From assembly GCA_041674405.1 (NCBI GenBank), contig JBAYVT010000004.1:30001-62000 (forward strand): a stretch of DNA of 32,000 nucleotides, read 5' to 3'. The DNA is from Patescibacteria group bacterium. GTDB lineage: Bacteria > Patescibacteriota > UBA1384 > XYA2-FULL-43-10. The stretch's first letter is position 1; every line of letters starts with the position of its first letter. The notes beneath the pieces are model-generated. The model searched no databases and was not told where the DNA came from. It was given only the letters and a program-made list of their open reading frames with translations. Position numbers and translations under genes: made by a program. Below, in pieces: positions 986 to 32,000 of this stretch.

Positions 986-2257
986 CTATCCATTTAAAAT
1001 TTTCTTAAGCTTCTTGTCGTCAAGAAAAGGCCCGACAACAGACACCAACATTTTATCAAAGTTGATGTATTTTTTCGCCACCCGTATTACGTCTTTGGCC
1101 GTTACTTCTTCAAATTTGGCAATGACTTCCTCGGGCGCCATGAGCTTTTCATGGATTATTTCCATCCGCATCAGCGATTCTGCCAAATTTTCCGAATCTT
1201 CCATTCCGATCGATATCGCACTTTTCATAAGTTCTTTAGCGCGCTTTATTTCCTCGTCTTTTGGGCCATCTTTGACAATTTTCCGGTATTCATTGATTAT
1301 CGCCCTGGATGCTTTCTCGATATTTTCATGCGCAACATTGGCAAGGGTAACCAGCGACCCAGCATCGGAGTATGCGATGTGCTCAGTCTCAGCTGCATAT
1401 GCCAGACCTAGTTTTTCTCTTACTTCAACAAACATTCTGGAGCTGGATGATCCGCCCAATATTTCCGCCAAGATTTTAAACGCATATCTATCTTCCAAAT
1501 CCCTGAGTCCAGGACCGGCAAAACCGATTATTAAATTCGTTTGCTCTGTTTTTCTTTGCCCGGAAACCTCTCTTGCAACATCAAGTGTACCCGATGTAAT
1601 AATTTCAGATTTTTTGCCACTTTTCGCTGTAAAATACTTTTCAGCCTCACAGACAACTTTTTCTTCTGTAAGATTGCCAAGGTTACCGCATATGACGACC
1701 ACAATATTCTCGGCAATGTAATGATCCTGCTCAAATTCCAATAGCTCTTCGTGTTTGATTTTTCGCACAGATTCAACGGTGCCTGCAATTCTTCGTCCAA
1801 GTGATTTTTCTGTAAAAATATTTTCTTCGAAAAGTTCAATCACTTCTTCCATTGGTCTATCTTTGTGCATCTTGATATCTTCGATCACAACGTTTTTTTC
1901 GCGGTTAAACTCTTCTTTGGAATTTATCGGATTGATCAAATTATCTGAGAGGTAATCAAGGACCTCAACCAAGTGATCGGAAGATATTTTGACATGATAA
2001 GCCGTAAGCTCCTTATCGGTATAAGCGTTATAAATGCCGCCGATATCGTTGATAAAGTCGTTCACCTTAGAAGGAGTGGGGCGTTTTTTCGATCCCTTGA
2101 AGCTCATGTGCTCAATAAAATGGGAAACTCCCGACAAATTCTCCGGTTCATACCGGCTGCCGACAGCAACGCCAACCATCACCGCCACCGCATTTGTTTC
2201 TTCCCGTGGGGCAATAATCAGCCGAACTCCATTTTTGAGCGTGTATTTCTTGAACAA
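986..2257 (-). CDS. M16-family (pitrilysin/insulinase-like) zinc peptidase
   Basis: HFIEHMSFKG carries the inverted zincin motif HxxEH near the N-terminus. The 423-aa two-lobe size fits the family. Confidence 0.85.
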   Translation of the reverse strand: MFKKYTLKNGVRLIIAPREETNAVAVMVGVAVGSRYEPENLSGVSHFIEHMSFKGSKKRPTPSKVNDFINDIGGIYNAYTDKELTAYHVKISSDHLVEVLDYLSDNLINPINSKEEFNREKNVVIEDIKMHKDRPMEEVIELFEENIFTEKSLGRRIAGTVESVRKIKHEELLEFEQDHYIAENIVVVICGNLGNLTEEKVVCEAEKYFTAKSGKKSEIITSGTLDVAREVSGQRKTEQTNLIIGFAGPGLRDLEDRYAFKILAEILGGSSSSRMFVEVREKLGLAYAAETEHIAYSDAGSLVTLANVAHENIEKASRAIINEYRKIVKDGPKDEEIKRAKELMKSAISIGMEDSENLAESLMRMEIIHEKLMAPEEVIAKFEEVTAKDVIRVAKKYINFDKMLVSVVGPFLDDKKLKKILNG

Positions 2258-2258
2258 T

Positions 2259-2603
2259 TTATTTCTTCGAATTATTTATGCTTGGCAGATCTGATAGAGC
2301 AATAATATCCAATGCAATTTCTTCGTAAGGATGATTTTCCTTAATGACTTCTAGCGCTTTTTCAATGTCAGATTTAGGACAGATGAATTCCAGTTTCACC
2401 TCTTCGGCTTCCTCAATTTTTCCAACTTCACCAATCGCCGGATCTGCGCCTTTGAGGGGCCGAAAATATCCTTTGCCCTCTGATATGAATGAACAATAAT
2501 CATAATTGCCCATTTTGCCAATACCGGCTTTGCCGAGAGCAAGTCGTAATTGTTCAATGTGATTTTTTGGCACGAAAACATAGATTTTAACAAATTGATT
2601 CAT
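2259..2603 (-). CDS. Small PII-like-fold protein resembling the Nif3/YqfO insert domain (COG3323-like)
   Basis: 114 aa. The pattern KIYVFVPKNHIEQLRLALGKAGIGKMGNYDYCSF...GYFRPLKGADPAIGEVGKIEEAEEVKLEF is recalled from that family. An AGGAG SD precedes the ATG at 2603. Confidence 0.5.
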   Translation of the reverse strand: MNQFVKIYVFVPKNHIEQLRLALGKAGIGKMGNYDYCSFISEGKGYFRPLKGADPAIGEVGKIEEAEEVKLEFICPKSDIEKALEVIKENHPYEEIALDIIALSDLPSINNSKK

Positions 2604-2619
2604 GACCTATCTCCTCTTA

Positions 2620-2727
2620 CGGAAAGCTCCGCCCGAAAAGTCCCTACGGGGCATTTCCCGACTCCTTCCCGTTTGAATCCCATCAAAAAGTCCAACCGCA
2701 TAGCCCGACGAATCGGGCGACGTGGAA
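2620..2727 (-). repeat. tRNA-Ser-trailing conserved element, copy 1
   Basis: The minus-strand sequence directly after the CCA of tRNA-Ser(UGA) is ttCCACGTcGCCCGATTcgTCGGGCTATGCGG...ATTcaAACGGGAAGGaGTCGGGAAA. It matches 14555-14624 block for block, and block 2 lies at 2654-2678. Confidence 0.7.
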
Positions 2728-2818
2728 TGGCGGAGAGAGTGGGATTCGAACCCACGAGAGCCTTGCAGCCCTACCTGTTTTCAAGACAGGCGCACTAGAC
2801 CAACTATGCGATCTCTCC
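2728..2818 (-). tRNA. tRNA-Ser (anticodon UGA)
   Basis: Reverse complement is GGAGAGA..CCTGT-CTTGAAA-ACAGG..long variable arm..GTGGG-TTCGAAT-CCCAC-TCTCTCC-G-CCA. All stems pair and CCA is encoded. Confidence 0.92.
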
Positions 2819-2819
2819 A

Positions 2820-2912
2820 TGGCGGAAGGTGTGGGATTCGAACCCACGTGGCGGCTTTTAGACCACCGACGGTTTAGCAAACCGTTCCCTTAAGCCTCTC
2901 GGGCAACCTTCC
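2820..2912 (-). tRNA. tRNA-Ser (anticodon GCU)
   Basis: Reverse complement is GGAAGGT..ACGGT-TTGCTAA-ACCGT..long variable arm..GTGGG-TTCGAAT-CCCAC-ACCTTCC-G-CCA. Only 1 nt (2819) separates it from the next tRNA. Confidence 0.92.
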
Positions 2913-3036
2913 ATTTACTTGACGATTCTAACAGAAAAATACTCTCGGAGCAACCGTTTTGTGCGCAAAATTCATATCTGGAGTATAATGCAATTATTGT
3001 AATTCTCTCGACTACGCTCGAGATAAAGGAGGCTAT

Positions 3037-3267
3037 ATGAGCGAAGTTAAATTAGGCAAATATAGACATTTCAAAGGCATGATTGTCGATGTCATCGGCA
3101 TTGCACTCCACAGCGAAACGATCGAGGAGATGGTTGTTTACAACCACCCCGATCCGGTGAAGGGCAAAGACGCCAATACGATGTGGGTCCGCCCGAAAGC
3201 GATGTTTCTAGAAACCGTTGAGAAAGACGGCAAAACTATCCCGCGATTTGAATACATTGGGGGGTAA
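3037..3267 (+). CDS. DUF1653-family protein
   Basis: GKYRHFKG...ALHSETIEEMVVY...WVRPKAMFLE matches the remembered DUF1653 pattern. An AAGGAGG SD lies upstream. Confidence 0.7.
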   Translation: MSEVKLGKYRHFKGMIVDVIGIALHSETIEEMVVYNHPDPVKGKDANTMWVRPKAMFLETVEKDGKTIPRFEYIGG

Positions 3268-3692
3268 TGCAAACAAGATTTTATAAAAATGAAGATTATG
3301 AATCTGTCAAATCAATTCTTTCGGAAGCAGATATGTTCGACGAGGTTTGGGATAGCAAACAACATCTCGCAAAAAAGATTCAATTAGAAGCCAAGGGCAT
3401 TCTCTTAGCCGTAGAAAATAAGGAAATCATCGGCTGCATTTATGTAAATCGTAATCCTTGGGCTTGTTTTCTGTATCGGTTAGCAGTGAGAAAACAATAT
3501 CGCAAAAAAGGGGCAGGAACGCTTTTGATTGAGACTGCTACCAACATGCTGCAAGAGGAAGGTGTTGAAGAAGTCGCAATTTATGTTGATTCCTCGAATG
3601 AAGATCTTCAAAATTTTTATGAAAAACGCGGATTTATCAAGGGCGGTCTTTATAGATGCATGTATAAAAAGCTTGATGGTGAAGACGAATGA
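3267..3692 (+). CDS. GNAT-family N-acetyltransferase
   Basis: LAVRKQYRKKGAGTLLIETA is the acetyl-CoA-binding Q/RxxGxG/A-type motif. The start overlaps the upstream stop (TAATG). Confidence 0.8.
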   Translation: MQTRFYKNEDYESVKSILSEADMFDEVWDSKQHLAKKIQLEAKGILLAVENKEIIGCIYVNRNPWACFLYRLAVRKQYRKKGAGTLLIETATNMLQEEGVEEVAIYVDSSNEDLQNFYEKRGFIKGGLYRCMYKKLDGEDE

Positions 3693-4264
3693 AAGTCCTC
3701 TTAATCGACAACAATACCAAGCATTTGAAAGAGCTCCGTGATCTTATCGAAGGTTGCGGGCATACTTCGGATACGATCAAATACACCGAGGCCAGCTCCG
3801 CAATCGCAGACCGATACGATCTCTCGATAATCACCGGTGGCCATCTTCTGGCGATTCCGAACCATAAGGAAGATTTGGCCCCGCAAATTGCGATGATCAA
3901 AGACATGCAGAAGCCGCTTCTGGGAATCTGTCACGGATTTCAACTCATAGCCTACACTTTCGGCGCCAAGCTTCACTACCGCACCGAACGGCTCAAAGGA
4001 ATCATCGAGGTCAATGTCTCTAAAACCGATCCTATCTTCGGTGAACTTACGAAGTTCGACGCGTTTGTGTCACACAAATATTACATCATGCGTCTGCCGA
4101 AAGAGCTTATCGAATTAGCGAGATCAAAATACAATATCGAGGCATTAAAACACAATAATCGGCCAATTTATGGCTTTCAGTTTCACCCTGAAGTAATAAC
4201 CCCGGGCAACACCAGCGGCCAAATATTGATCAATCTTTTTCGTGAAATTGAAAAACGCTCGTAA
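3689..4264 (+). CDS. Class I glutamine amidotransferase-like protein
   Basis: LLGICHGFQL is the nucleophile elbow with Cys, and YGFQFHPEV is the His/Glu region. It has an ATGA overlap with the upstream GNAT gene. Confidence 0.8.
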   Translation: MKVLLIDNNTKHLKELRDLIEGCGHTSDTIKYTEASSAIADRYDLSIITGGHLLAIPNHKEDLAPQIAMIKDMQKPLLGICHGFQLIAYTFGAKLHYRTERLKGIIEVNVSKTDPIFGELTKFDAFVSHKYYIMRLPKELIELARSKYNIEALKHNNRPIYGFQFHPEVITPGNTSGQILINLFREIEKRS

Positions 4265-4296
4265 TTTCTATTTTTCATCAAATTTTTATTACTTTT

Positions 4297-4324
4297 TTGA
4301 CAGAATCTTCAAAAGTTTTATAAT
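4297..4324 (+). promoter_or_regulatory. Sigma70-type promoter TTGACA-N16-TATAAT
   Basis: TTGACA at 4297-4302 and TATAAT at 4319-4324, about 30 nt upstream of the 4354 start. Confidence 0.6.
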
Positions 4325-4353
4325 GGAAGTAGCTATTATTTCTCGGAGGGATT

Positions 4354-4860
4354 TTGGCAAACGACCCAAAAACCACAGCTCCCAAGATTGACTTGTCCAA
4401 CGAGAAGCCGCTTTTTCAGTGGAAAGCAAATGAATTTGCGGAATATTCCAAAAATTCTTCTTGGTATCTATTGGTGATCGTGGTTGCGATTGCAATTGCA
4501 GCCGTGTTTTGGTGGCTTAAGAACTGGACTGCCATCGGAGTTGTAGCGGCAGCGGCTATTGCCCTCATTGCACAAGCCAAGACCAAGCCGAAAAGTGTAT
4601 CTGTCCAGCTATTTAGGGAAGGTATTGTTGTAAATAATAAAGTCTATCCTTATGATTCCTTAAAATCTTTTTGGATTATTTCCGGAGACCATCCGGTTTT
4701 TCGGCTCGAGCAAACCGGGTTTCTAAGGCCGCACATCAATGTGCCTATTGCCGAAGAAGATCCAGCACAGATTCAGCTTTTTTTGGCAAAATTTTTACCT
4801 GAAAACGAGAAAAAAGGCGAGGATATTGCCGATATCATCCAGAGATGGACGCGATTCTAA
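4354..4860 (+). CDS. Hypothetical membrane protein (two adjacent TM helices)
   Basis: WYLLVIVVAIAIAAVFWWL and AIGVVAAAAIALIA are hydrophobic helices. The start is TTG, preceded by GGAGGG. No family was recognised. Confidence 0.5.
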   Translation: MANDPKTTAPKIDLSNEKPLFQWKANEFAEYSKNSSWYLLVIVVAIAIAAVFWWLKNWTAIGVVAAAAIALIAQAKTKPKSVSVQLFREGIVVNNKVYPYDSLKSFWIISGDHPVFRLEQTGFLRPHINVPIAEEDPAQIQLFLAKFLPENEKKGEDIADIIQRWTRF

Positions 4861-4920
4861 AGAAGTTAAAAGTGGAAAGTATAAAAAAATGCACAGGAGA
4901 GTGCTTTTTTGTTTGGTTTT

Positions 4921-5550
4921 CTAAAGAGGCTTTAATTCGTCCTTAAATCTTTCAATCATAAATTTAAGATCAGGAGTGAAAGAATCTGGATTTTTATCGA
5001 TCTCGTGCAAAAGTTCGTCCATTGAGAAAACTTCTATTCCACACGATTCTCCGTCGACAAATTTCAACACACCATTATAATAGCCGATGTAATAACAAGT
5101 AATATACGGCTGAATGAATTTTTTACCATCAATTGAAGTTCTCTCTGAATCCAAATCTGCCGGCCCGAGCAATTTTTTAACGAGTCCAATAACTTCAAGA
5201 TTTGTGGATTTCACAGCTTTTGAAAAATCCTCGTCGCTAATTACTGCGACTGGAATCCCAAGTTCCTCGGCACATTCACGAACGACCGTGATCTCCCAGT
5301 GTCCCCCGGAGCTAAGATGCCCCCCTACTGTCTTGTCGTATAGCCCAGGGTTTTCAGGTTTTATTCGGCTTCTCTTTTGCAAATAAATCCTGCCGTCCGT
5401 GTTCAGAAGAAGTAGTCTGATAGATTTAACCCTACTAGAGACTTTTCCCGTCTTTTCAAACTCTTCTTTGCTTTCAATAAAGTATTTCTTCCGGTCTTCA
5501 ACCCTAAGTAGGTTGCCTTCGAGATCATATATATCTAATTTCTCAGCCAT
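4921..5550 (-). CDS. NUDIX hydrolase family protein
   Basis: GGHLSSGGHWEITVVRECAEELGI fits the Nudix box GX5EX7REUXEEXGU. Confidence 0.8.
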   Translation of the reverse strand: MAEKLDIYDLEGNLLRVEDRKKYFIESKEEFEKTGKVSSRVKSIRLLLLNTDGRIYLQKRSRIKPENPGLYDKTVGGHLSSGGHWEITVVRECAEELGIPVAVISDEDFSKAVKSTNLEVIGLVKKLLGPADLDSERTSIDGKKFIQPYITCYYIGYYNGVLKFVDGESCGIEVFSMDELLHEIDKNPDSFTPDLKFMIERFKDELKPL

Positions 5551-9414: not shown

Positions 9415-9767
9415 AAATCAAAAAAACAAAAAAAACTGCTTTAATTTTCGCCGCCACCACATTGATCTCTGTGCTGCCCGGGTTTGCCAGCGCATTTACC
9501 ACCGGAGTTGCAATAAATGGCAAAACAACTTTCTCCAGTTATATGGACTGGATGAAATCAATTTTTGGCTTTGCCATGAAACTTGGAGCGGTTTTAACTA
9601 CCCTAATGATACTCTATGCCGCAATCAAATATATCACCTCGCAAGGCAATTCTAGTGCTACCAATGAAGCAAAGGACATAATTATCGGCAGCCTGTCCGG
9701 CTTCGCCATGCTGCTTCTCATTTATTTAATTCTTAATGTTTTGGGGCTAAAAAGCTTTGCGTTTTAG
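9408..9767 (+). CDS. VirB2/TrbC-like (T4SS-pilin-like) small membrane protein 1
   Basis: A signal peptide (PGFASA/FT) is followed by a two-TM hairpin, LMILYAAIKYITSQGNSSATNEAKDIIIGSLSGFAMLLLIYLI. The start overlaps the SBP stop (ATGGTAA). Confidence 0.65.
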   Translation: MVKIKKTKKTALIFAATTLISVLPGFASAFTTGVAINGKTTFSSYMDWMKSIFGFAMKLGAVLTTLMILYAAIKYITSQGNSSATNEAKDIIIGSLSGFAMLLLIYLILNVLGLKSFAF

Positions 9768-9776
9768 TTAGTTAAA

Positions 9777-11975
9777 ATGAAAAGTTATAAATTCATAAAA
9801 TCCATTTCTCGATACCTCATAGTTTTTGCTGTTTTTGCAACCGCTACCTCCGCCATGGTTTTTGCTGTGCAAAATAACCAGGTGGGCGCGGACACAACAA
9901 CAGGTGTCAATTCCGCTGCCACTTCTGGAACAAGCAGCACGGGAGTCTCATCCGGAAAGGATTCCTCAGACGCTAAAAAAACTATTTCCGCTACCCCTAA
10001 CTACAAAGTTGTTAAGTCATCTTCCGGTACCTCCGCCAAGATGGTCTTGGTTTCGGTCACAAATGAAGAAATTACTGGAGCTGATTATACAAACTCCACC
10101 ACCAGCTATGGCATTACAAAATCCAAAGACAGCGCTACATGCGAAAACATACTTTCCCTTGATGAATATTGTTACATTTTGACCTACAACCAAGAGTGGA
10201 TCAAGCCTTCGGTCATTGATCCGATAAGCCCATCCTGGATATTTCTTGAAGAAATAAAGGGCCGCGCGACCACAGCAAGTGACTCATCTTCTCTCACCAT
10301 TATTAACAATGCCGAAGCCAGTTTTGCTTCGACTGCGCTCCAGAAATGGGACGGAGTAGATCTCTCGCAAATATCTCAGGGCGACGGGCAGATTATCATT
10401 CGATCAGAGGCTTTTTTCGATGCACTTGACGCAGATAAATTGACCTCAACCGGGTCTTATGTCACCTATTCGGCACCACAAGACAAGAAAACCTCCAGTG
10501 GAACAACTTCGAAACAGCTCATTGTGAAACTGGCACCAGCGTATCCGGATGCAAAAGCTGAATCGCTATGGATGGACGCAATTGATTTCACTTTGGGATC
10601 TGTAATTATCCCCTGGCAAGAAACCTTTCATGTGGATTTGTCGGACAAAAAATTAGCGCTTGAGAATCATCGAAAGGCATATGCAAACTATGCTGATGTG
10701 GCATCGTCAAAAACAGATGTGAACGGAACAGCCTTGAAAATTTCCGGCCCGCAAAAAATCATTATTGGCACCGATGGCTCGGCAAAAACAGACGGCGGTT
10801 TCAGTGTCACCATTGATCCTACCAAATTTACCAAACCCGAGAGAGGATACAAAACCCAGGTGTATATTAAGCCAACTGTCAAAAATGGGGATGCTGTTTT
10901 CACTTATTTACAATCTACCGATCCGGCCGCAACGTCATTTCCCTTTACTTGGTCTGCGATTGCCACAAATCCTTATGCCACCTCTATTCTCGCCGATGGT
11001 TCAGTAAAAACATATGACGATAGTGAGATCAAAGCTAATGGAATAATGTCTTACGAAAAAAATTATCCGCAGTCATACACCGTCACCGCCATCACATACA
11101 ATCAAGATGATTCGGAAAAAGAGAGAGTCGTTATGACTTTCGATACGATCGGCGATTCTTCATTTACCGAAGCACCGAAGGTTGGTTCGGGCAATATCAC
11201 AAATGGGCATATCTCGATTTCTGTCCCACAAAACACATTCACTAAAGCTGACAGGCAGCCAGTTCATTACACGATTCAGCTCGCAGATACAAACAATCCT
11301 AAAAAAATGAAAAAGATTGTTGTCTGGACATGCGGAGGAACAGCATCTGCAACAATAGCAGGGGATTCAAGCAACTGCGTCGGCACAGGAAATATCGAGC
11401 AAACAATCGCTGCATTTATAATGAGCGACATTCGCCCAGCCGACAAGCCAACCTGGAAAGAACTTGCATATGATGAAAACGGAGAGGCTACTCTTCAGGG
11501 CGATTGGGATATTTCGGGTACAAATGTCGGCACATTTTCCTTGATGGCCAAGGCACATAGTGCCAATTCGGATGATTCGGGCGGTATGGCTTCATATGTT
11601 CCCGGCAGCAAAGTTGCCGTCACCGTGAGCATAACCGATTCGAAACTCAATGATGGAGGTGGTTTAGATACTAAGTTTACCGACCTCCTCAAGCTCGGGA
11701 AAAAAGCATCATCAAATGCCAGAGGGTCTTCAATTACAGACTTAACAGGGGCAGCCACCAGGGTTGTAAATATAATTTTGTCTGCCCTCAGTGCGATTTG
11801 CGTGTTGGCAATAATAATCGGCGGAATACAATACATCTCATCAGGGGGAGATCCGGCCAAAGCTGAAAAGGGCAAAAAAACTGTTATCTATGCTGTTTAT
11901 GGAATCGTTTTAGCAATATTAGGATTTTTTATTGAATATGTGGTTATTGACTTAATTCACCAAATACTAAAATGA
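9777..11975 (+). CDS. Large Ser/Thr-rich surface protein with a C-terminal VirB2/TrbC-like pilin module
   Basis: It has an N-terminal signal/anchor, the low-complexity stretch TTTGVNSAATSGTSSTGVSSG, about 640 aa of unrecognised ectodomain, then ICVLAIIIGGIQYISSGGDPAKAEKGKKTVIYAVYGIVLAILGFF, which is paralogous to the three small neighbours. Confidence 0.6.
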   Translation: MKSYKFIKSISRYLIVFAVFATATSAMVFAVQNNQVGADTTTGVNSAATSGTSSTGVSSGKDSSDAKKTISATPNYKVVKSSSGTSAKMVLVSVTNEEITGADYTNSTTSYGITKSKDSATCENILSLDEYCYILTYNQEWIKPSVIDPISPSWIFLEEIKGRATTASDSSSLTIINNAEASFASTALQKWDGVDLSQISQGDGQIIIRSEAFFDALDADKLTSTGSYVTYSAPQDKKTSSGTTSKQLIVKLAPAYPDAKAESLWMDAIDFTLGSVIIPWQETFHVDLSDKKLALENHRKAYANYADVASSKTDVNGTALKISGPQKIIIGTDGSAKTDGGFSVTIDPTKFTKPERGYKTQVYIKPTVKNGDAVFTYLQSTDPAATSFPFTWSAIATNPYATSILADGSVKTYDDSEIKANGIMSYEKNYPQSYTVTAITYNQDDSEKERVVMTFDTIGDSSFTEAPKVGSGNITNGHISISVPQNTFTKADRQPVHYTIQLADTNNPKKMKKIVVWTCGGTASATIAGDSSNCVGTGNIEQTIAAFIMSDIRPADKPTWKELAYDENGEATLQGDWDISGTNVGTFSLMAKAHSANSDDSGGMASYVPGSKVAVTVSITDSKLNDGGGLDTKFTDLLKLGKKASSNARGSSITDLTGAATRVVNIILSALSAICVLAIIIGGIQYISSGGDPAKAEKGKKTVIYAVYGIVLAILGFFIEYVVIDLIHQILK

Positions 11976-12283
11976 TGCATAAAATTATTTCTATCGCTAT
12001 GGCTGCGGATGACCTTAAGCTGCCGGAGAAATCTGGTGGCACAGAGGCTGATCTTGGCACTGTTCTTGGCTTTCTTGAAAAAATTATTTCTATTGCCATG
12101 GATATCGCCATAATCCTCGGTGTTATTATGATTTTTGTTTCCGCCTTTATATATGCAAGCTCTTTCGGCGAAGAATCCAAGGCAGAAACTGCCAAAAAGA
12201 CTCTTTTGTGGGCAGTTATCGGAACAGGCGTAGCATTCTTGGCAAAGATTATTGTTGACAACCTTGATCTGCTTTTGGGTTAG
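11972..12283 (+). CDS. VirB2/TrbC-like (T4SS-pilin-like) small membrane protein 2
   Basis: IMIFVSAFIYASSFGEESKAETAKKTLLWAVIGTGVAFLA is the same two-TM module. It has an ATGA overlap with the upstream gene. The segment KIISIAM occurs twice. Confidence 0.6.
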   Translation: MMHKIISIAMAADDLKLPEKSGGTEADLGTVLGFLEKIISIAMDIAIILGVIMIFVSAFIYASSFGEESKAETAKKTLLWAVIGTGVAFLAKIIVDNLDLLLG

Positions 12284-12300
12284 CGCATCAATAATGTTAT

Positions 12301-12329
12301 TTGACAAGCAAAAAATATGTGCTTAAAAT
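12301..12329 (+). promoter_or_regulatory. Sigma70-type promoter TTGACA-N17-TAAAAT for the last pilin-like gene
   Basis: TTGACA at 12301-12306 and TAAAAT at 12324-12329. A GGAGGG SD precedes the ATG at 12367. Confidence 0.6.
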
Positions 12330-12366
12330 TGTTCTTAGTGGACTTAAATAATAAGACGGAGGGCGA

Positions 12367-12684
12367 ATGAATTTAGTAGAAAAGGCGTACGCGGTTAGCA
12401 AAAACCAGTGGACTGGTTTGCTAAACCCAACAGCCACCACTTCGGGAAACTGGCAAGATATTGTTAATAACGTTATTAACATTGTCTTGATGGTAGCTGG
12501 TGCATTAGCGGTTATTTATCTAATCTATTCTGGCATTCTCTACATTACTGCGGCAGGTAATCCGGATTCAGCCAAAAAGGGTCAGCAAGGCATTATCAAT
12601 GCTGTGATCGGTATTGTGATCATCGTTGCCGCATTCTTCATCGTCAGAGCAGCAATGGGTCTTGCTGGGCAAGCTACAAAATAA
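12367..12684 (+). CDS. VirB2/TrbC-like (T4SS-pilin-like) small membrane protein 3, with its own promoter
   Basis: ALAVIYLIYSGILYITAAGNPDSAKKGQQGIINAVIGIVIIVAAFFIV is the cleanest copy of the shared module. Confidence 0.65.
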   Translation: MNLVEKAYAVSKNQWTGLLNPTATTSGNWQDIVNNVINIVLMVAGALAVIYLIYSGILYITAAGNPDSAKKGQQGIINAVIGIVIIVAAFFIVRAAMGLAGQATK

Positions 12685-25889: not shown

Positions 25890-25972
25890 GGAGCGTTCGA
25901 TAATAATCCTTAGGGCGCACAGCTGCGATTAGCGCAGGCGTCCAAGGTACTGATTGTCAGGAGGTGGCAGAC

Positions 25973-26893
25973 ATGCGTCTGTCCACGATAATTGGGTTAG
26001 CTATGATGTTGGTGTCGGGGGCGTTCGCGGGAGAGATCGCAGTCTGCCCGCAGCCTACCCCTCAGAGACTGGCGATCGCGCCGGTCTCTGCCTCGTCCCT
26101 TGGCCAGTTCGAGTGGTGGGTGGACGAAGAGGAGGCGGCCGGCCTGGTCGAGGAGCGAGCCTATGAGGTCGCTCCCTGCATTCTGGCCGCCTACAACATG
26201 GAGCTGGTAGAGCGGAAGATGCTCGGGATCGCAGAGGCCGAGCAGGCCTTGGCAGAGGATCCGTACATGGACCCCACTACCTTCGAGCAGCCTGGCCAGG
26301 GCGTCGGCGCCAACTGGCTCCTGGTGGTTACGGTCACCAGGATGAGCGTGGAGGATAAGTCCGTGGACGTTGAGATCCGCGGCAACTCCTATCACGCTGA
26401 GAAGTCCATGATAACGGTCTGGCTGCAGGCGCGGATCGTCAATGTGGGGACGAAAGTCGTGTCACCCGCGCTATCGATTCGCAAGAACTGCACGATCACG
26501 ACTGACCAGCAGCTCAGCCTGCAGAGCGGCGAGTGGGATCTGGGCGGTGATCAGCGGACGGACATCGTGACCGATGCCGTCTATAAGATCACCGACTCTG
26601 GTCTTGCCGAGCTCTTGGGGCAGCTGCTGCCCAAGCTTGGCATCAGGACTGGGGCGCAAGCCGGATTCCGGTACGACCCGCAGACGGGCGAACGCATTTC
26701 GGTGATTGAGCAGACATACATCTGCCCGAACCCGAGATGCAACCGGATCTCGCCGAAAGGAGCGAACTTTTGCCCCTACTGCGGCGCCAGGTTGGACCGG
26801 CCCTGCGAACCCGCACCGGCAATCGAAAGGGCGCGGCCCTGTGAGCCGCCACCAGCCGCTAACCGCGACAAGGTGAACCACGCCGGCGGATAG
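25973..26893 (+). CDS. Secreted CsgG/LpoB-like-fold protein with a C-terminal zinc ribbon and Pro-rich tail (GC-rich), start revised
   Basis: The ATG at 25973 lies 8 nt after CAGGAGG; the track used a GTG at 25964. The signal peptide is MRLSTIIGLAMMLVSGAFA. MELVERKMLGIAEAEQAL...GANWLLVVTVTRMSVEDK...ITVWLQARIVNVGT parallels the CsgG-family pattern. The zinc ribbon is CPNPRCNRISPKGANFCPYCGARL. Confidence 0.55.
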   Translation: MRLSTIIGLAMMLVSGAFAGEIAVCPQPTPQRLAIAPVSASSLGQFEWWVDEEEAAGLVEERAYEVAPCILAAYNMELVERKMLGIAEAEQALAEDPYMDPTTFEQPGQGVGANWLLVVTVTRMSVEDKSVDVEIRGNSYHAEKSMITVWLQARIVNVGTKVVSPALSIRKNCTITTDQQLSLQSGEWDLGGDQRTDIVTDAVYKITDSGLAELLGQLLPKLGIRTGAQAGFRYDPQTGERISVIEQTYICPNPRCNRISPKGANFCPYCGARLDRPCEPAPAIERARPCEPPPAANRDKVNHAGG

Positions 26894-26917: not shown

Positions 26918-26954
26918 AAAGGAGCGCCCTTAACCGGGCGCTTCCTTTGTGTTT
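26918..26954. terminator. Strong hairpin terminator between convergent genes
   Basis: AAAGGAGCGCCC (26918-29) pairs with GGGCGCTTCCTTT (36-48) with a 1-nt bulge, followed by GTGTTT. Confidence 0.7.
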
Positions 26955-26975: not shown

Positions 26976-29900
26976 TTAAAATCCGACATGTGTATACGCG
27001 GTAGTCTGTGGATTTGCCCACATGCCAGCCTTGGTGCCGTTACACAAGCCGTTTGTTTGCCCGCCGCCAGTGACATTTTTACATATGGTATCTGATGTAA
27101 GTGCTGACCAAGCATTTACATCTTCCCAACGGCCGGTCATGACCTGGGTTGGGACGAGCTTTTGATCATCTGTACTTGATGGCATGTCGTATAAGTTTTG
27201 GATGAATTTATTGGCCTTGTATTGTGCAGCCTCAATTATCTTTCTCTCTCTGGTTTTACTGTCTATACCATTCCATACCCCGAGATTTCCGTTGTCCACT
27301 ATATCGGGTGATGGTGGTGATTCGATGCTAGGATAATAACCATCAGCTGTACACAAGTATTCAACTTTGTAAACACCAAAGAGGTTATTGTAAAGGATAA
27401 TTGCCACATCAATTGCTGCTTGTATCCAGTTGCCATACAGAAAGCTGATAGTGGCATCCAGAAGAAGCGATAAGGTGCCAGGAGCAAGTCCGAGCTGCTC
27501 GTCCCATTTTGCCAATGTGTCGCCCAGAACAAGCCTTGCCGCATAAGAGATTGCCGCAGCCTTGGCATTTGCAAGATTGGCACCAGAAGCCCCGCTTCCG
27601 CCGGACGCAGCAAATGCCTGCTCTGCCTGTTTAAAGTTCTGGTACAAATTATAAAGATTTTGGCTTGTGCCTGGCGGCAGACCAAATGTCTTGTCAACAA
27701 ATCCGCCAACAAAGTTTAGGGCAAACGATGGGCCCCCATAAATGTCTGCTAGAGATTGAAGCTTATTTCCAGCTATTGATAGTGCCCCTTCTAAGCTTCC
27801 AGTCTGAAGAAATCCAAGAATACCACCGAATGTGCCTTGGCCGAAATCGACCCCAAAAATCGAGGCTGCCTTACCTGTAATGTAATTATCTATTGTGTTA
27901 ACGAGAGTTCCGTCGGCAGTGGCTGATCCCAAAAGGCCATTCAAAGCGCTCTTAAAGTCAAAGCTGTTCGGATCAGAAATAAAATTTTGTAGTGTTCCCA
28001 AGAATCCGCCCGGAAGAAAATCTATTCCGAGGTCATTCCGGATTAAGCCCTCGGCATATTCAAGTAGGGTAGTTGTCCGCGTCCAATCATTCCCCTGAAA
28101 CATGCTGCGGGCAAAATCGGCAGGAATATTCGGATCCAGCCTGTGCAAGGCTAAATCAATTGATTTATACTCCACTCCCTGGCTCCAAATATTTGTAGCA
28201 AAGTCGATTGCTGCTTGCCCAGCGTTTAAGACATCAAGCGCTCGAGTATTGCCAATTCGAACATTTAGAAGGCTGTCAATTGCCGCCCCTGTATCAATCC
28301 CAGCAGTAATGCGCAATCCATTGTCAACTTGAAGATTTAGAATCGGCGCACTTGAAGTATCCGATGCACCCGGGAAATTAAGGCCAATGTTAATAATCCC
28401 GTTTGGAGGCCCAAGGTTAGATGATGTAGTAGAATCGGACAATATCCCGGTTGAAACGTTGAAGGTGGCGTTACCGGCGGCGATCGTCCAGTTGTAACTA
28501 GAATTAGTCAGCTGGTTCCATCTTTGTTGCTCTGCTGCCAGGCGAACGGCAATTTCCTGTGTTAAATCTCCATATACCAATCGCGTTAGATCGCTAAAAT
28601 TAAACTTGAATGAATTTAGGGCATTTATTGCGTTGTCGTATGTTTCAAATATTCCCAAATTGAAGGGCAATCCGTCTTTGCCGGAATACATTTGGGGGAT
28701 ATTCATGACTGCACCTAGGAGCTGAATCGGCCTAAAATCCCCATAGAGAATTTGCTGGAAAGTTGAAGAGTCAAACCCGTCCATGTTTAGGAGATTTTTG
28801 AGAGAATATTCCAGGTTGCCGGCAATATCTTTGATCGTGAAATTAACTTGCAAATCTTTAAAAGCGTCCCCGACAAGTGTGTTTAACTGTCCCCCGATCG
28901 TGGACTTGAGGCAAGATTCCGTATCTCCACTGCCGCCAAATATCGAGAGCCCGCATCTTATGTCCGGATTGCCCAAGATCAATGTCTTGAATACTGAAGT
29001 CAATCCTAAACTGCTGTCAAATGCCTCGGCACCAAAGGATATTAATCTGTTAAAAGTTGTCTGAGGGTCTTGCAGAATTGTGGCCATGGTGCCTTCCGGC
29101 AAACCGGCTTTTTTATCCAGATTCCAAGAGAAAATATTGTTTAATGTACCATAAAGATCACCCATGTTATCGCCGGGATCTTTGATCCAGGTGATGAGAT
29201 TGTTTATGTCGCCATCTGTTATTTGCCTGTCGCTGCCGTCTTGTAGCCCGAGTCCTTTTATCAAACCCGAAATCAAATTGTTCTGAGTTGCGGCATCAGT
29301 AACCTGGCGTACGTATTGGTTTATCGGGAAAATCTCACCCAGGCTTCCCGCGGTTGGCGAGGCAAGAAGCTTGACTGTTGTGCCATCCGGCAGCCCGAGA
29401 TTGCGATCCAGAAAAGATAATCTGCCAACGAAGTTGTTCCACGAAGGTTCGTTCTGGCTAAATAAGGTGGCAATTGTATCCGAATTAAATCCACCGGTGC
29501 TTCCTTTTGAGACCAGGGAATCAATTGTCTTTTGTAATGCATCATTCACTCCGGTCCAGTTAGTGCCTAAGGCCTGGTAATAAGTTACAACGGAGTTTAG
29601 TTTTTGATAAAAGCTGTTTCCTGCATTCACATTAAAGAAATTTTCACCCATAGACTTTAATTCTGCATTTACAACACTGATCTCTTCTTGGCTTACCGGA
29701 ATTTGGAACGCTTCGGCAAATTTAACAACCCCGACATTCTTTGCAACACCCAAAATATTTCCGCTTTTTAGCGACCCAGCCGGTAATCCGAGCAGTGACT
29801 CTGCTTTATTTGACCCAACACTGCTACCGGTGAACAAAGAAGCCAAGTCAAGGTTGCCTGTGCCAATAGAGTTACCGATAAGATTAGTTGATATTTGAGT

Positions 29901-32000
29901 GGCTGCGCACTTTCTTGCGCTTGCATTATCATTGTTTAGGAGCCCCGAAGCGGTACCTTTTTGCAGATTGAGGCTAGAATCTAGAATTGAGCTGCCGATT
30001 TTTGCGAATACGCTCTTTGAATTGCCGTTAAATATATTGAAGATATCGTCAGCGGTCAATCTTCCGGATCCTATTTGTGTTCCGATAGATTGGTTTACAG
30101 AAGATGCGGCAAGCTTGTCGACTATGTTGTAGCCAGAAACCTTTAGGTAGTCGAGCGGGACTTGCCCACCGGAGCTATTTTTATTCTGCCTTGAAAATAC
30201 CGCTTCGCTTTCTTCAGTCGAGATATTTAGCCCGAAGTCCAAAATCTTTTCAAATTGGATAAGATTAGCATCGCTAAATGGCTTGGACGATGTATTATCA
30301 GAAACAAATGTGTCTAGGGCAGCTTTTATTTTATCAGCACTTCCATAATCCTTTAGGAAGTCTTTTGCCGCGGCAATTCCTTCGGCAGAAAATTGTGGCG
30401 GGAATGACCTAAAATAATTTTCGAGGTAAGAAGGAACTCCGCTGCCTGTTTGTGAAGCTCCTTTAGATATGTCCAAAGATAACAAATAAACTGCGTTTGC
30501 AATTTCGTCAGTATAATTTATTTTTTTATCATCGTTTGCGCTCTTGTATTCACTAGCAGCAGAATATGTGCTAAATATATGTTCGCCGGCTTTGTCGAAA
30601 TACACGTAGCTATTGTCTGGTATGGTCGTGCCTGCGATATCGACATTTTGTATGGGCTGGCAGGGATTGTCAGGCGTTGCTGCTGCCATTAAGTAATTGT
30701 TGTGGTCGACGAAGTAAATTTGGTTAACCCCAGGATTGTCATTTCCTCCCTTGTGTGTCATAAACGCCTTAATCGCTGCTTCGGAAACATGCATTTTTGT
30801 TGCCAAAAGCCTGATAGTATCGCTGTCAGCTTCCGATTGGTCATATCCACCGATTTGTTGTCCGGTGATAAATTTCTCGGTCGTCCCGGCCGGCAGCTTG
30901 CTTTTCACGTCATTCGCAATCGCCTTGGAGCGAGCCGAAGACCACGCGCTGAAGCTGTTGTTCATAAGGTCATCAAGATCAAATCCCTTTAGTCCCATGC
31001 CCGATGCAAGAATATTGTTTGCTTTGCTCCGGCTTATTTTCAATTTGTTTACCATGCCGTCACGAAGGTCTGCCAAAGATTTTGGTGACGACAGATCAGA
31101 TCCTGTTAAAATTGAGCTTCCGGCAACTCCAGCTTGCTCCTCAAGAGCTGCTGAACCGATGGCACGGAAAAAAATGTCTTTGAAACTTTGGCTGTTCTTT
31201 GCTTGGTCATTGTTTTTTGCCAGAGCCAGTGCGTCCGAAGCATATTTTAGGGCCTTTGAAGAGATCCCCAAGCTGCCGCTTAGTTTAGCTGAGGCAGCGC
31301 CAGATACTAAATCTTGCAAAGTAGTTTTTCCGGACAGGAACGAAACCAGGTCTCCCAATCCAAGCTTGGAGCCACCCAGATCGATGGAGGAAAACTTAAT
31401 ATCACTCAAGTGCAAATCTTCAATCTTAAAATCCGCCTGCTCGTTTCCAGTGGTGATCTCATATGCAGATTTTGTGATATCTTGTACATTCTGCATTACG
31501 CCATTGAGCTGGTGCAGATAATCGGAAAATGTTCCGTCATTGCTTGAAAGGCCTTCGGAGAGATCTGTAGATCCGGAAAATACCGGGGAGCTTGCTTCGT
31601 TAATGATACTGCCAATCGCGATTGCGGCTGTTGTTGTGTCTCCGCCTCCCGGGTTTGCATCAGCCTTTTCGGCAGCGGTCGCGAACACAGACAAAGCCTG
31701 TTTTAGAGCGTCATCCTTTGCTTTTATTGTGCTATTTAATTTGTCTGATACTGCGCTTGAAGCAGACGTATAACTTTGTATTCGTTGATTTAGAGTGTTC
31801 AGTGTGGACTTAATGCCGTTGATTCGGTCGGTATAATATGCCTGATCGCGAACATTTTTATTTTCTAATACATTTGAATTGTTTGCTTCTTGTGTTTTTT
31901 TATCGTCATAGCCCGAAGTCTCAAGTGCTTGCCTTAAGTTTTTTTGCCCTATTTTTTTGAAAGTACCGGCCGGGTCTGATCCTATGCCAAATAAATTTGC
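26976..32000 (-). CDS. Giant hypothetical surface-type protein (at least 1674 aa in window), N-terminus beyond the window
   Basis: The track starts it at a TTG (31694). Checked triplet by triplet, the frame has no stop from 31695 to 32000 and no Met there, so the gene continues upstream. It is Gly/Ser/Asn/Leu-rich, and no catalytic motif was recognised. Confidence 0.7.
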   Translation of the reverse strand, partial: ANLFGIGSDPAGTFKKIGQKNLRQALETSGYDDKKTQEANNSNVLENKNVRDQAYYTDRINGIKSTLNTLNQRIQSYTSASSAVSDKLNSTIKAKDDALKQALSVFATAAEKADANPGGGDTTTAAIAIGSIINEASSPVFSGSTDLSEGLSSNDGTFSDYLHQLNGVMQNVQDITKSAYEITTGNEQADFKIEDLHLSDIKFSSIDLGGSKLGLGDLVSFLSGKTTLQDLVSGAASAKLSGSLGISSKALKYASDALALAKNNDQAKNSQSFKDIFFRAIGSAALEEQAGVAGSSILTGSDLSSPKSLADLRDGMVNKLKISRSKANNILASGMGLKGFDLDDLMNNSFSAWSSARSKAIANDVKSKLPAGTTEKFITGQQIGGYDQSEADSDTIRLLATKMHVSEAAIKAFMTHKGGNDNPGVNQIYFVDHNNYLMAAATPDNPCQPIQNVDIAGTTIPDNSYVYFDKAGEHIFSTYSAASEYKSANDDKKINYTDEIANAVYLLSLDISKGASQTGSGVPSYLENYFRSFPPQFSAEGIAAAKDFLKDYGSADKIKAALDTFVSDNTSSKPFSDANLIQFEKILDFGLNISTEESEAVFSRQNKNSSGGQVPLDYLKVSGYNIVDKLAASSVNQSIGTQIGSGRLTADDIFNIFNGNSKSVFAKIGSSILDSSLNLQKGTASGLLNNDNASARKCAATQISTNLIGNSIGTGNLDLASLFTGSSVGSNKAESLLGLPAGSLKSGNILGVAKNVGVVKFAEAFQIPVSQEEISVVNAELKSMGENFFNVNAGNSFYQKLNSVVTYYQALGTNWTGVNDALQKTIDSLVSKGSTGGFNSDTIATLFSQNEPSWNNFVGRLSFLDRNLGLPDGTTVKLLASPTAGSLGEIFPINQYVRQVTDAATQNNLISGLIKGLGLQDGSDRQITDGDINNLITWIKDPGDNMGDLYGTLNNIFSWNLDKKAGLPEGTMATILQDPQTTFNRLISFGAEAFDSSLGLTSVFKTLILGNPDIRCGLSIFGGSGDTESCLKSTIGGQLNTLVGDAFKDLQVNFTIKDIAGNLEYSLKNLLNMDGFDSSTFQQILYGDFRPIQLLGAVMNIPQMYSGKDGLPFNLGIFETYDNAINALNSFKFNFSDLTRLVYGDLTQEIAVRLAAEQQRWNQLTNSSYNWTIAAGNATFNVSTGILSDSTTSSNLGPPNGIINIGLNFPGASDTSSAPILNLQVDNGLRITAGIDTGAAIDSLLNVRIGNTRALDVLNAGQAAIDFATNIWSQGVEYKSIDLALHRLDPNIPADFARSMFQGNDWTRTTTLLEYAEGLIRNDLGIDFLPGGFLGTLQNFISDPNSFDFKSALNGLLGSATADGTLVNTIDNYITGKAASIFGVDFGQGTFGGILGFLQTGSLEGALSIAGNKLQSLADIYGGPSFALNFVGGFVDKTFGLPPGTSQNLYNLYQNFKQAEQAFAASGGSGASGANLANAKAAAISYAARLVLGDTLAKWDEQLGLAPGTLSLLLDATISFLYGNWIQAAIDVAIILYNNLFGVYKVEYLCTADGYYPSIESPPSPDIVDNGNLGVWNGIDSKTRERKIIEAAQYKANKFIQNLYDMPSSTDDQKLVPTQVMTGRWEDVNAWSALTSDTICKNVTGGGQTNGLCNGTKAGMWANPQTTAYTHVGF

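Follow-up and report, generated by a model that had tools for sequence, protein, structure and literature searches.

The stretch of DNA analysed here (the window) comprises 32,000 nucleotides of a Patescibacteria group bacterium (contig JBAYVT010000004.1, positions 30,001 to 62,000; G000:C4:30001-62000 in our numbering) and was taken from a 929 kb genome in 7 contigs that is 98.7 % complete. The end of the window is filled by a giant open reading frame (ORF) on the minus strand, which has its stop codon at 26976-26978 and is stop-free over 26976..32000 (1674 codons). This ORF is a real gene encoding an exported protein of 2429 residues, and it is the terminal gene of a ~20-kb chromosomal, origin-proximal operon for a type IV secretion system (T4SS). 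Upstream and on the same strand lie, in this order, genes for three large membrane proteins of 630, 904 and 496 amino acids (aa) with no Pfam matches, PrgI/VirB3, a TrsD-like protein, VirB4 (TraG P-loop), a PEGA/beta-propeller protein, a Peptidase_M15_4 and a Peptidase_C39_2/C70-like protein, followed by the giant gene; the 904-aa protein corresponds by position to a TrbL/VirB6-like protein of 940 aa in a relative. The stop of the C39-like wall peptidase gene overlaps the start of the giant gene by 11 nt, and the giant gene is translationally coupled to it. Downstream and convergent are genes for a 309-aa zinc-ribbon protein, dciA, recF and dnaN. The co-directional arrangement with VirB4, PrgI/VirB3, TrsD-like and VirB6-like proteins and wall hydrolases near dnaA is that of the chromosomal T4SS clusters of Patescibacteria, and the cluster is shown to be a Gram-positive-type, MPF-FATA-like T4SS. 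A preliminary description of the window had placed the gene where gyrB/gyrA usually follow recF; this position was found to carry no significance, since the gene is convergent to dnaN-recF-dciA and ends the T4SS operon.

The last ~100 in-window codons of the giant frame contain no Met. The frame runs on past the TTG at 31694 and over the window edge as far as an ATG (window-equivalent 34265); this TTG is therefore not the start, as the preliminary description had suspected when it called the TTG an artefact and expected a protein larger than the one shown. The database gene call (P0003, 2401 aa) begins at an internal ATG, 28 codons short; it is too short because the closest relative (P0022, 53 % identity over the first 120 residues) conserves these 28 upstream codons, which form a signal peptide. 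An internal ATG or TTG as start of the giant gene was ruled out by this conserved signal peptide. Three independent metagenomes, from a second landfill study, from groundwater and from another landfill, supplied contigs that cover most of the gene without indels and differ by one substitution at the most, so that the interruption on re-sequencing considered in the preliminary description was not seen; an assembly artefact or a pseudogene was ruled out by these indel-free contigs and by the presence of the gene across genomes. The composition of the protein is dominated by S (10.3 %), L (9.9 %), G (9.0 %), A (8.9 %), N (7.7 %) and D (7.2 %).

The giant protein is clearly predicted to be exported by the Sec pathway via a cleavable signal peptide: in ~40 relatives a K/R-rich n-region, a hydrophobic core of 15-20 aa and an AxA-type site are followed by an acidic low-complexity stretch. 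A hydropathy threshold was exceeded by the N-terminal signal and by one C-terminal-proximal region only, and the giant protein thus lacks the polytopic layout of VirB6/TrbL channel proteins, with at least five transmembrane helices. The public gene call starting at the internal ATG loses the signal peptide (L002:10182-10265, minus strand), and automated annotation of the family may accordingly misjudge the location of the protein.

A word-based search returned ten relatives (2444-3091 aa; 25-32 % identity, in alignments that reach 100 % of the length), of which one is labelled Candidatus Berkelbacteria and none has Pfam domains. By exhaustive profile search, 264 representatives (50 % clustering) were obtained at E <= 1e-3 and 179 at E <= 1e-30; nearly all of the 264 are 1400-3300 aa long, and the family can be aligned over its full length at 25-33 % identity. 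The gene is nearly always single-copy and occurs in 36 of the 43 other genomes of the order. Among the 162 genomes of the class, its C-terminal domain was found in 70 (4/7 in genome family f1, 21/23 in f2, 11/12 in f3), where it nearly always ends an open frame of 1800-3200 aa; in a 401-genome sample of the phylum, the N-terminal domain was found outside the home class only in f57 (6/6 genomes) and in one genome of f111. Searches of the whole protein against Pfam (0 matches at E <= 0.01), NCBIfam, PADLOC and PHROGs gave nothing meaningful, and searches of PDB sequences with the whole protein and with the N- and C-terminal domain profiles gave chance-level matches only. The family, its repeat and its C-terminal domain are unnamed in the libraries and papers searched.

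The linkage to the T4SS recurs in relatives, in which the order TrbL - x - PrgI - TraC-like - VirB4 - PEGA/propeller - peptidase(s) - giant gene is followed by recF-dnaN-dnaA; a family member of 1405 aa comes after PrgI - TraC-like - VirB4 - YkuD. By comparison of two tables, the C-terminal domain was located 7.6-14.4 kb downstream of VirB4 and on the same strand in all 40 genomes that carry the two on a single contig; elsewhere they fall on separate contigs. A cell-surface or host-interaction role, one of the candidates of the preliminary description, is the most plausible class for the exported protein, given the Sec signal in essentially all relatives and the strict linkage to the T4SS cluster. 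For toxin delivery, another of its candidates, the analysis yielded evidence in neither direction.

The preliminary description had noted a motif of the form DxxxGLPxGT recurring at long, irregular intervals. The five instances it quoted are present (residues 1493, 1624, 1721, 2195 and 2259), and the recurrence is real and far beyond chance against composition-preserving shuffles: GLPxG[ST] was observed 5 times (0.01 expected), DxxxGLPxGT 3 times (0.000 expected) and [DE]xxxGL[PA]xG[ST] 7 times in the whole protein (0.005 expected) and 5 times in its in-window part (0.004 expected), and none of 2000-5000 shuffles matched any observed count. A hidden Markov model (HMM) seeded on the motif copies and iterated over the family defined a repeat unit of ~30 aa with the consensus LL..IGG..I[DE]..LGLP.GTF.G.L, of which 12 copies were detected in the giant protein and 6-9 in each of the ten relatives. 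The relatives keep [DE]-x-x-hydrophobic-[GSN]-[LIF]-x-x-G-[ST] at all 12 copy positions, and the copies are therefore regarded as old, fixed structural elements. Long, irregular intervals hold for the six in-window copies, which are scattered; they do not hold just outside the window, where the other six form a tandem array at a period of ~30 aa (residues 477-684). The repeat unit was found in no other ORF of the genome. A resemblance of GLPxG to PG_binding_1 was considered and dropped, as there was no Pfam match.

An AlphaFold2 (AF2) model of the N-terminal domain with the repeat array (118 sequences) reached a predicted local distance difference test score (pLDDT) of 85 overall and a predicted template-modelling score of 0.70, with the array above 90. 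In this confident model the motif always directly follows the C-terminal end of a helix of ~16 residues, and from the DSSP string of the model we read it as a helix-cap and turn. For residues 1241-2429 (11 sequences) the model consisted almost entirely of short helices at a pLDDT of 53 and was used only for helix content; Foldseek with this model gave no fold match. Taken from these models, the body of the protein is probably a very long, all-alpha, repeat-containing stretch. The segment that the preliminary description quoted as coiled-coil-like lies in the least conserved part of the protein.

Conservation is highest at residues 241-280, 361-400 and 2281-2429. The first two maxima fall in the N-terminal domain, where YLVxPK..GGAGH is followed by an acidic insert that varies and then by SAHxxGQAxDIS. 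In LAS/M15 peptidases, SxHxxGxAxD forms the H-x6-D zinc block, so that the earlier statement that the protein has no catalytic motif holds inside the window and fails for this upstream domain. Over 118 sequences the conserved positions were D233 (116), R235 (111), S351 (108), H353 (110), D360 (111), D365 (114) and Q395 (118), and H256, further upstream, was present in only 80. The His and Asp of the first two zinc ligands (H-x6-D) of the LAS/Peptidase_MD type are thus conserved; a third ligand His ([DE]xxH or HxH) downstream of D360 was conserved in neither the 11- nor the 118-sequence alignment. The neighbouring true M15_4 has ...CDAMH... at its C-terminus. Profile-profile comparison (hhalign) with the M15_4 family of the operon aligned exactly the 21-column SxHxxGxAxD block (probability 46-54 %, P 1.3e-4; reversed or shuffled controls, P 0.12-0.67). 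LAS models did not reach the Pfam gathering score, and among 11 domain sequences VanY was matched by one (E 0.004) and M15_4 by two (E 0.12); single-sequence Pfam scans gave sub-threshold VanY, Peptidase_M15_4, Extensin-like_C and DUF5715. Nothing significant was obtained with the N-terminal domain from Foldseek (PDB, BFVD) or the Atlas. ESM Atlas feature searches gave weak M15 and Hedgehog similarity (0.80-0.83) for the N-terminal domain and Saccharimonadota VanY-type clusters (0.77-0.83) for protein P0095, both taken as leads only.

The giant protein thus shares with LAS/M15 enzymes (VanY, Peptidase_M15_4, the Streptomyces albus DD-peptidase 1lbu and the LysB4 endolysin 6akv) the His and Asp of SxHxxGxAxD and a conserved upstream Arg; profile-profile comparison gave a local match, and structure search a weak one. 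Judged by its motif the head appears LAS-like, and membership in M15 is not established. Catalysis by this predicted head is doubtful. If the head were non-catalytic, a hydrolase-regulating role like that of degenerate LytM factors would be conceivable by analogy. Such factors are EnvC and NlpD, which activate amidases. The putative regulatory head would resemble them as a LAS-type fold member with a partly lost metal site that stands beside active wall hydrolases; EnvC and NlpD are M23 proteins that have lost most ligands, whereas the M15-like head of the giant protein keeps two of three.

The third maximum covers the C-terminal domain of ~130 aa (CTADGYYP ... AAQYKA ... QxMTGRxED ... C ... 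C ... THIGF). The Cys-containing C-terminal region ending ...THVGF that the preliminary description had pointed out is a real domain and the best-conserved block of the family. C2305, C2395, C2408 and H2426 are invariant in close relatives; the domain was present in 115 of 135 full-length members recovered with the N-terminal profile, and it ends exactly at the protein C-terminus in 60 of 118 matches, as it does in the giant protein. It matched nothing in Pfam, PDB sequences or the Atlas; DUF637 and DUF3272 (Pfam at E <= 10) were each hit by a single member and were discarded as chance. The domain is preceded by a hydrophobic segment, a probable membrane anchor, with a Kyte-Doolittle value of 1.5 here, a family median of 1.79, values up to 2.5 and at least 1.6 in 39 of 44 sequences. 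K+R averaged 1.36 after the segment and 0.14 before it (enriched on that side in 38 sequences vs 2), and a single N-out/C-in span is favoured by this bias. Sortase anchoring was ruled out, as no LP.TG occurs anywhere in the giant protein and the C-terminus reads ...THVGF. The coordinates of all features are collected in the table.

Table. Features of the giant gene and its surroundings. Coordinates are window positions unless prefixed; L002 and G000:C4 coordinates correspond to window positions as given in the first line.
Feature	Coordinates	Strand	Remarks
Full giant gene	L002:2976-10265 = G000:C4:56976-64265 = window-equivalent 26976..34265	-	2429 aa
In-window part of giant gene	26976..32000	-	residues 756-2429 and stop codon
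Sec-type signal peptide (predicted)	L002:10167-10265	-	residues 1-33; site between VQA and LEE; beyond window edge
Acidic low-complexity linker	L002:9666-10166	-	residues ~34-200; beyond window edge
Conserved N-terminal alpha/beta domain	L002:9066-9593	-	residues ~225-400; S351, H353, D360; near-invariant D233, R235, D365, Q395; beyond window edge
Tandem array of six ~30-aa helix-cap repeats	L002:8214-8837	-	residues 477-684; AF2 pLDDT >90; beyond window edge
Stretch quoted as 'coiled-coil-like'	31692..31799	-	residues ~823-858; in least conserved segment
Repeat copy 7	29919..30011	-	residues 1419-1449; ...DSSLNLQKGT...
Repeat copy 8	29739..29831	-	residues 1479-1509; ESLLGLPAGS
Repeat copy 9	29346..29429	-	residues 1613-1640; DRNLGLPDGT
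Repeat copy 10	29055..29147	-	residues 1707-1737; DKKAGLPEGT
Repeat copy 11	27633..27725	-	residues 2181-2211; DKTFGLPPGT
Repeat copy 12	27441..27521	-	residues 2249-2275; DEQLGLAPGT; runs into hydrophobic segment
Hydrophobic segment(s), probable membrane anchor	27375..27494	-	residues ~2258-2297; by hydropathy; Lys/Arg enriched on C-terminal side
Conserved C-terminal domain	26979..27374	-	residues 2298-2429; CTADGYYP...QVMTGRxED...C...C...THVGF
Peptidase_C39_2/C70 (AvrRpt2-like papain fold) protein	L002:10255-11313	-	352 aa; upstream neighbour
GC-rich hairpin followed by T-tract	26921..26944	+	in 82-nt gap between convergent 309-aa gene and giant gene; 1 found vs 0.6 expected, weak

From export, linkage and architecture we infer, tentatively and with a confidence that stays a little short of even, that the giant protein is an extracytoplasmic arm of the T4SS, engaging the wall or contacting the host. 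Its C-terminal end would be held in the membrane of the producer beside the VirB3/VirB4/VirB6 core, on which the conserved anchor domain could dock; the helical repeat body would form a stalk spanning the wall, and the LAS-like head at the distal N-terminus would attach to, or cleave, peptidoglycan stem peptides in the own wall or that of the host, acting with the two co-encoded upstream peptidases (M15_4 and C39-like). If this is true, the giant protein fills the adhesin or wall-breaching role left unassigned by surveys of Patescibacteria T4SS. Several observations weigh against such an arm. The hydropathy of the anchor is weak in the giant protein itself (Kyte-Doolittle 1.5), and the stretch of ~38 residues, which has a Pro or Gly at its centre, could fold as a hairpin and so leave the C-terminal domain outside. 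The C-terminal half reaches only a pLDDT of 53. One distant relative (P0126, 3282 aa) lacks VirB4 in the 10 kb upstream, where only the peptidase genes C39/C70 and NlpC/P60 were seen; T4SS pilin genes stand at a distance of 8-10 kb. Finally, VirB4 was found in 155 of the 162 genomes of the class and the giant C-terminal domain in 70, and the T4SS can therefore work without the giant family.

The same features were weighed for a protein that is cargo of the T4SS, which would be exported by Sec and then pushed onto or into the host envelope, where its C-terminal hydrophobic hairpin would enter the envelope and its LAS-like head would breach the wall of the host. Pertussis toxin is exported by Sec and then taken up by the Ptl system, which has no coupling protein, and a T4SS and its toxin can be encoded in one operon, ptx-ptl being an example. 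The giant protein has a Sec signal peptide; its C-terminal-proximal hydrophobic segment and invariant extreme C-terminus (THIGF) could be an insertion or recognition element; and no coupling protein or relaxase is encoded in the cluster, PF02534 and PF03432 being absent from a search of the genome and a TraG-D_C match on another contig being the only related signature. A distant coupling-protein homologue of Southlakia has been reported to be non-essential (PMC12102498). Set against this are the single-copy, order-wide and full-length conservation of the protein, a pattern more to be expected of a machine part than an effector, the positive-inside bias, which favours a resident N-out/C-in anchor, the lack of any toxin or enzyme domain besides the LAS-like block in Pfam, NCBIfam, PADLOC and PHROGs, and the passage of a folded helical protein of 2400 aa through a T4SS channel, for which there is no precedent; cargo is on balance considered unlikely.

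Judged unlikely to the same degree is a general surface adhesin or fibre, comparable to the giant membrane proteins of Vampirococcus, that would bring about attachment without the T4SS channel, its only tie to which would be co-transcription. Candidate phyla radiation (CPR) genomes commonly encode giant exported proteins, which are thought to form a fibrous surface (PMC8080830), five other ORFs above 2000 aa are present in this genome, and a body built as a long, repeat-containing helical rod, with a variable middle and a family length from 1400 to 3300 aa, would suit such a role. The strict order and strand relative to VirB4 in 40/40 same-contig genomes and the translational coupling to a wall peptidase argue against it, as does the restriction of the repeat unit to this one protein of the genome; neither a known adhesin domain nor an LPxTG signal was found (Pfam, NCBIfam, motif search). 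The other five giant ORFs measure 4387, 4060, 3740, 2431 and 2083 aa, lie on contigs C4, C2, C6 and C1, carry no GLPxG repeat and make up, together with the giant gene, ~6 % of the 0.93-Mb genome.

A more elaborate scheme, in which the giant protein would be the working end or the substrate of the relaxase-less Patescibacteria T4SS and act as a harpoon, is decidedly improbable: it would be exported by Sec, passed to the T4SS and driven across both walls, the head and the peptidases would open the host peptidoglycan, the hydrophobic hairpin and the THIGF domain would insert in the host membrane, and the repeat body would become a bridge or conduit for epibiont feeding. Hardly tenable is a tape-measure-like or assembly role, the former among the candidates of the preliminary description; a helical ruler with a muralytic head would here set the length of, or prime, the T4SS pilus or channel, much as phage tape-measure proteins serve tails: the combination of a long helical body, a wall-peptidase-like block and a hydrophobic segment is that of some phage tape-measure proteins (e.g. 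T5 Pb2), T4SS pilin genes occur in the locus and several such proteins were among the top non-significant viral Foldseek matches, but these matches (BFVD) all had E > 0.29 and template-modelling scores <= 0.13, no such family was found in Pfam or in PHROGs (only the unrelated phrog_4952, E 0.082), a Sec signal with a probable membrane anchor is unfit for a tube-enclosed protein, and the length varies more than two-fold within the family.

The giant protein was also compared with described systems. Epibiotic growth of Southlakia requires its T4SS (SEML1_0006-0019, beside recF), a system in which neither a relaxase nor a coupling protein could be recognised and which is akin to Gram-positive conjugative systems (Wang et al. 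2023, PMC10633639). Its cluster includes SEML1_0007, an essential protein of 1113 aa that has a Hedgehog/DD-peptidase domain at its C-terminus, as well as a PEGA protein and one of lysozyme/Cys-protease type, and nothing of 2400 aa is in the list (PMC10633639). A survey of Patescibacteria T4SS placed the clusters near dnaA and turned up no adhesins of the PrgB kind (Quinonero-Coronel et al. 2025, PMC12102498). Like SEML1_0007 of Ca. Southlakia epibionticum ML1, the giant protein is a large 'hypothetical' encoded just downstream of VirB4 in an origin-proximal, relaxase-less cluster by recF, has a LAS-type (DD-peptidase) element and is adjoined by PEGA and cysteine-peptidase or lysozyme genes. 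Unlike SEML1_0007, which is less than half its length, it has the GLPxG repeat body, ends in the THIGF domain and carries its LAS-like block at the N-terminus and without the third zinc ligand, whereas that of SEML1_0007 is C-terminal (951-1105). No sequence homology between the two was detected, the N-terminal domain profile having reached only f57 and f111 outside the class among the 401 genomes, and the Atlas feature similarity was taken as a lead only.

With VirB1-type hydrolases (PrgK of pCF10, TraG of pIP501), the giant protein would share the traits of an exported, membrane-tethered, multi-domain component of an MPF-FATA-type cluster that handles peptidoglycan to let the channel through the wall (PMC12102498). 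Those proteins have lytic transglycosylase, LytM or CHAP domains in ~400-900 aa; no SLT or CHAP domain was found in the giant protein (Pfam, NCBIfam), alongside which separate M15_4 and C39-like enzymes are encoded. PrgB-type adhesins are likewise large, Sec-exported surface proteins of Gram-positive-type T4SS with a presumed role in mate or host contact, but the giant protein has no LPxTG, adhesin, glucan-binding or Ig-like domains and is predicted to be all-alpha rather than beta-rich. Giant proteins adjacent to secretion systems have been described in Omnitrophota (bioRxiv 10.1101/2023.11.21.568195) and giant membrane proteins in Vampirococcus (PMC8080830). They resemble the giant protein as very large exported products of bacteria with small cells and a host-dependent or predatory life, are likewise encoded behind secretion-system genes and are implicated in wall attack or attachment; the likeness is one of analogy only, since they belong to other lineages, to type II/IV-pilus-like systems and to other domain types, and no sequence relationship was found.

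Both the T4SS and the theme of large proteins with wall-peptidase parts that go with it were known already; the family, its repeat and its C-terminal domain seem new, being named in none of the libraries and papers searched. The T4SS of Patescibacteria is essential for epibiotic growth in one tractable species, yet has no relaxase, local coupling protein or known cargo or adhesin. The present family adds a conserved, exported and operon-locked component that is near-universal in one order and is not named in the published surveys searched; surveys based on Pfam overlook this largest gene of the cluster. It offers a two-ligand LAS-like head, a new and confidently modelled helix-cap repeat and a conserved C-terminal domain that would act as anchor.

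Some further observations were made on the cluster and its surroundings. The C39_2/C70 gene recurs before the giant gene in relatives, where its product is sometimes 520-800 aa long; the 352-aa protein is a candidate wall cutter or a candidate processor of the giant protein. The sole coupling-protein-like signature of the genome, in which neither PF02534 (coupling protein) nor PF03432 (relaxase) was found, is TraG-D_C (26 bits) in an 860-aa frame far from the cluster (G000:C5:43723-43908, minus strand). In family f5 (G001-G019), VirB4 frames measure ~875-920 aa vs ~620 aa elsewhere and the giant C-terminal domain was found in 0/19 genomes; this lineage seems to have a different T4SS layout. 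Four PF18895 (T4SS_pilin) matches, one of them inside a 735-aa frame, were located at window positions 9549-12651 on the plus strand, so that the dnaA-dnaN-recF block is flanked by T4SS parts on either side, as it is in Southlakia. The convergent 309-aa gene (25964-26893, plus strand) has zinc-ribbon Pfam matches only and is GC-rich (local GC 0.54 vs a background of ~0.43), and the hairpin behind it is possibly a terminator-like element for this plus-strand gene and possibly bidirectional.

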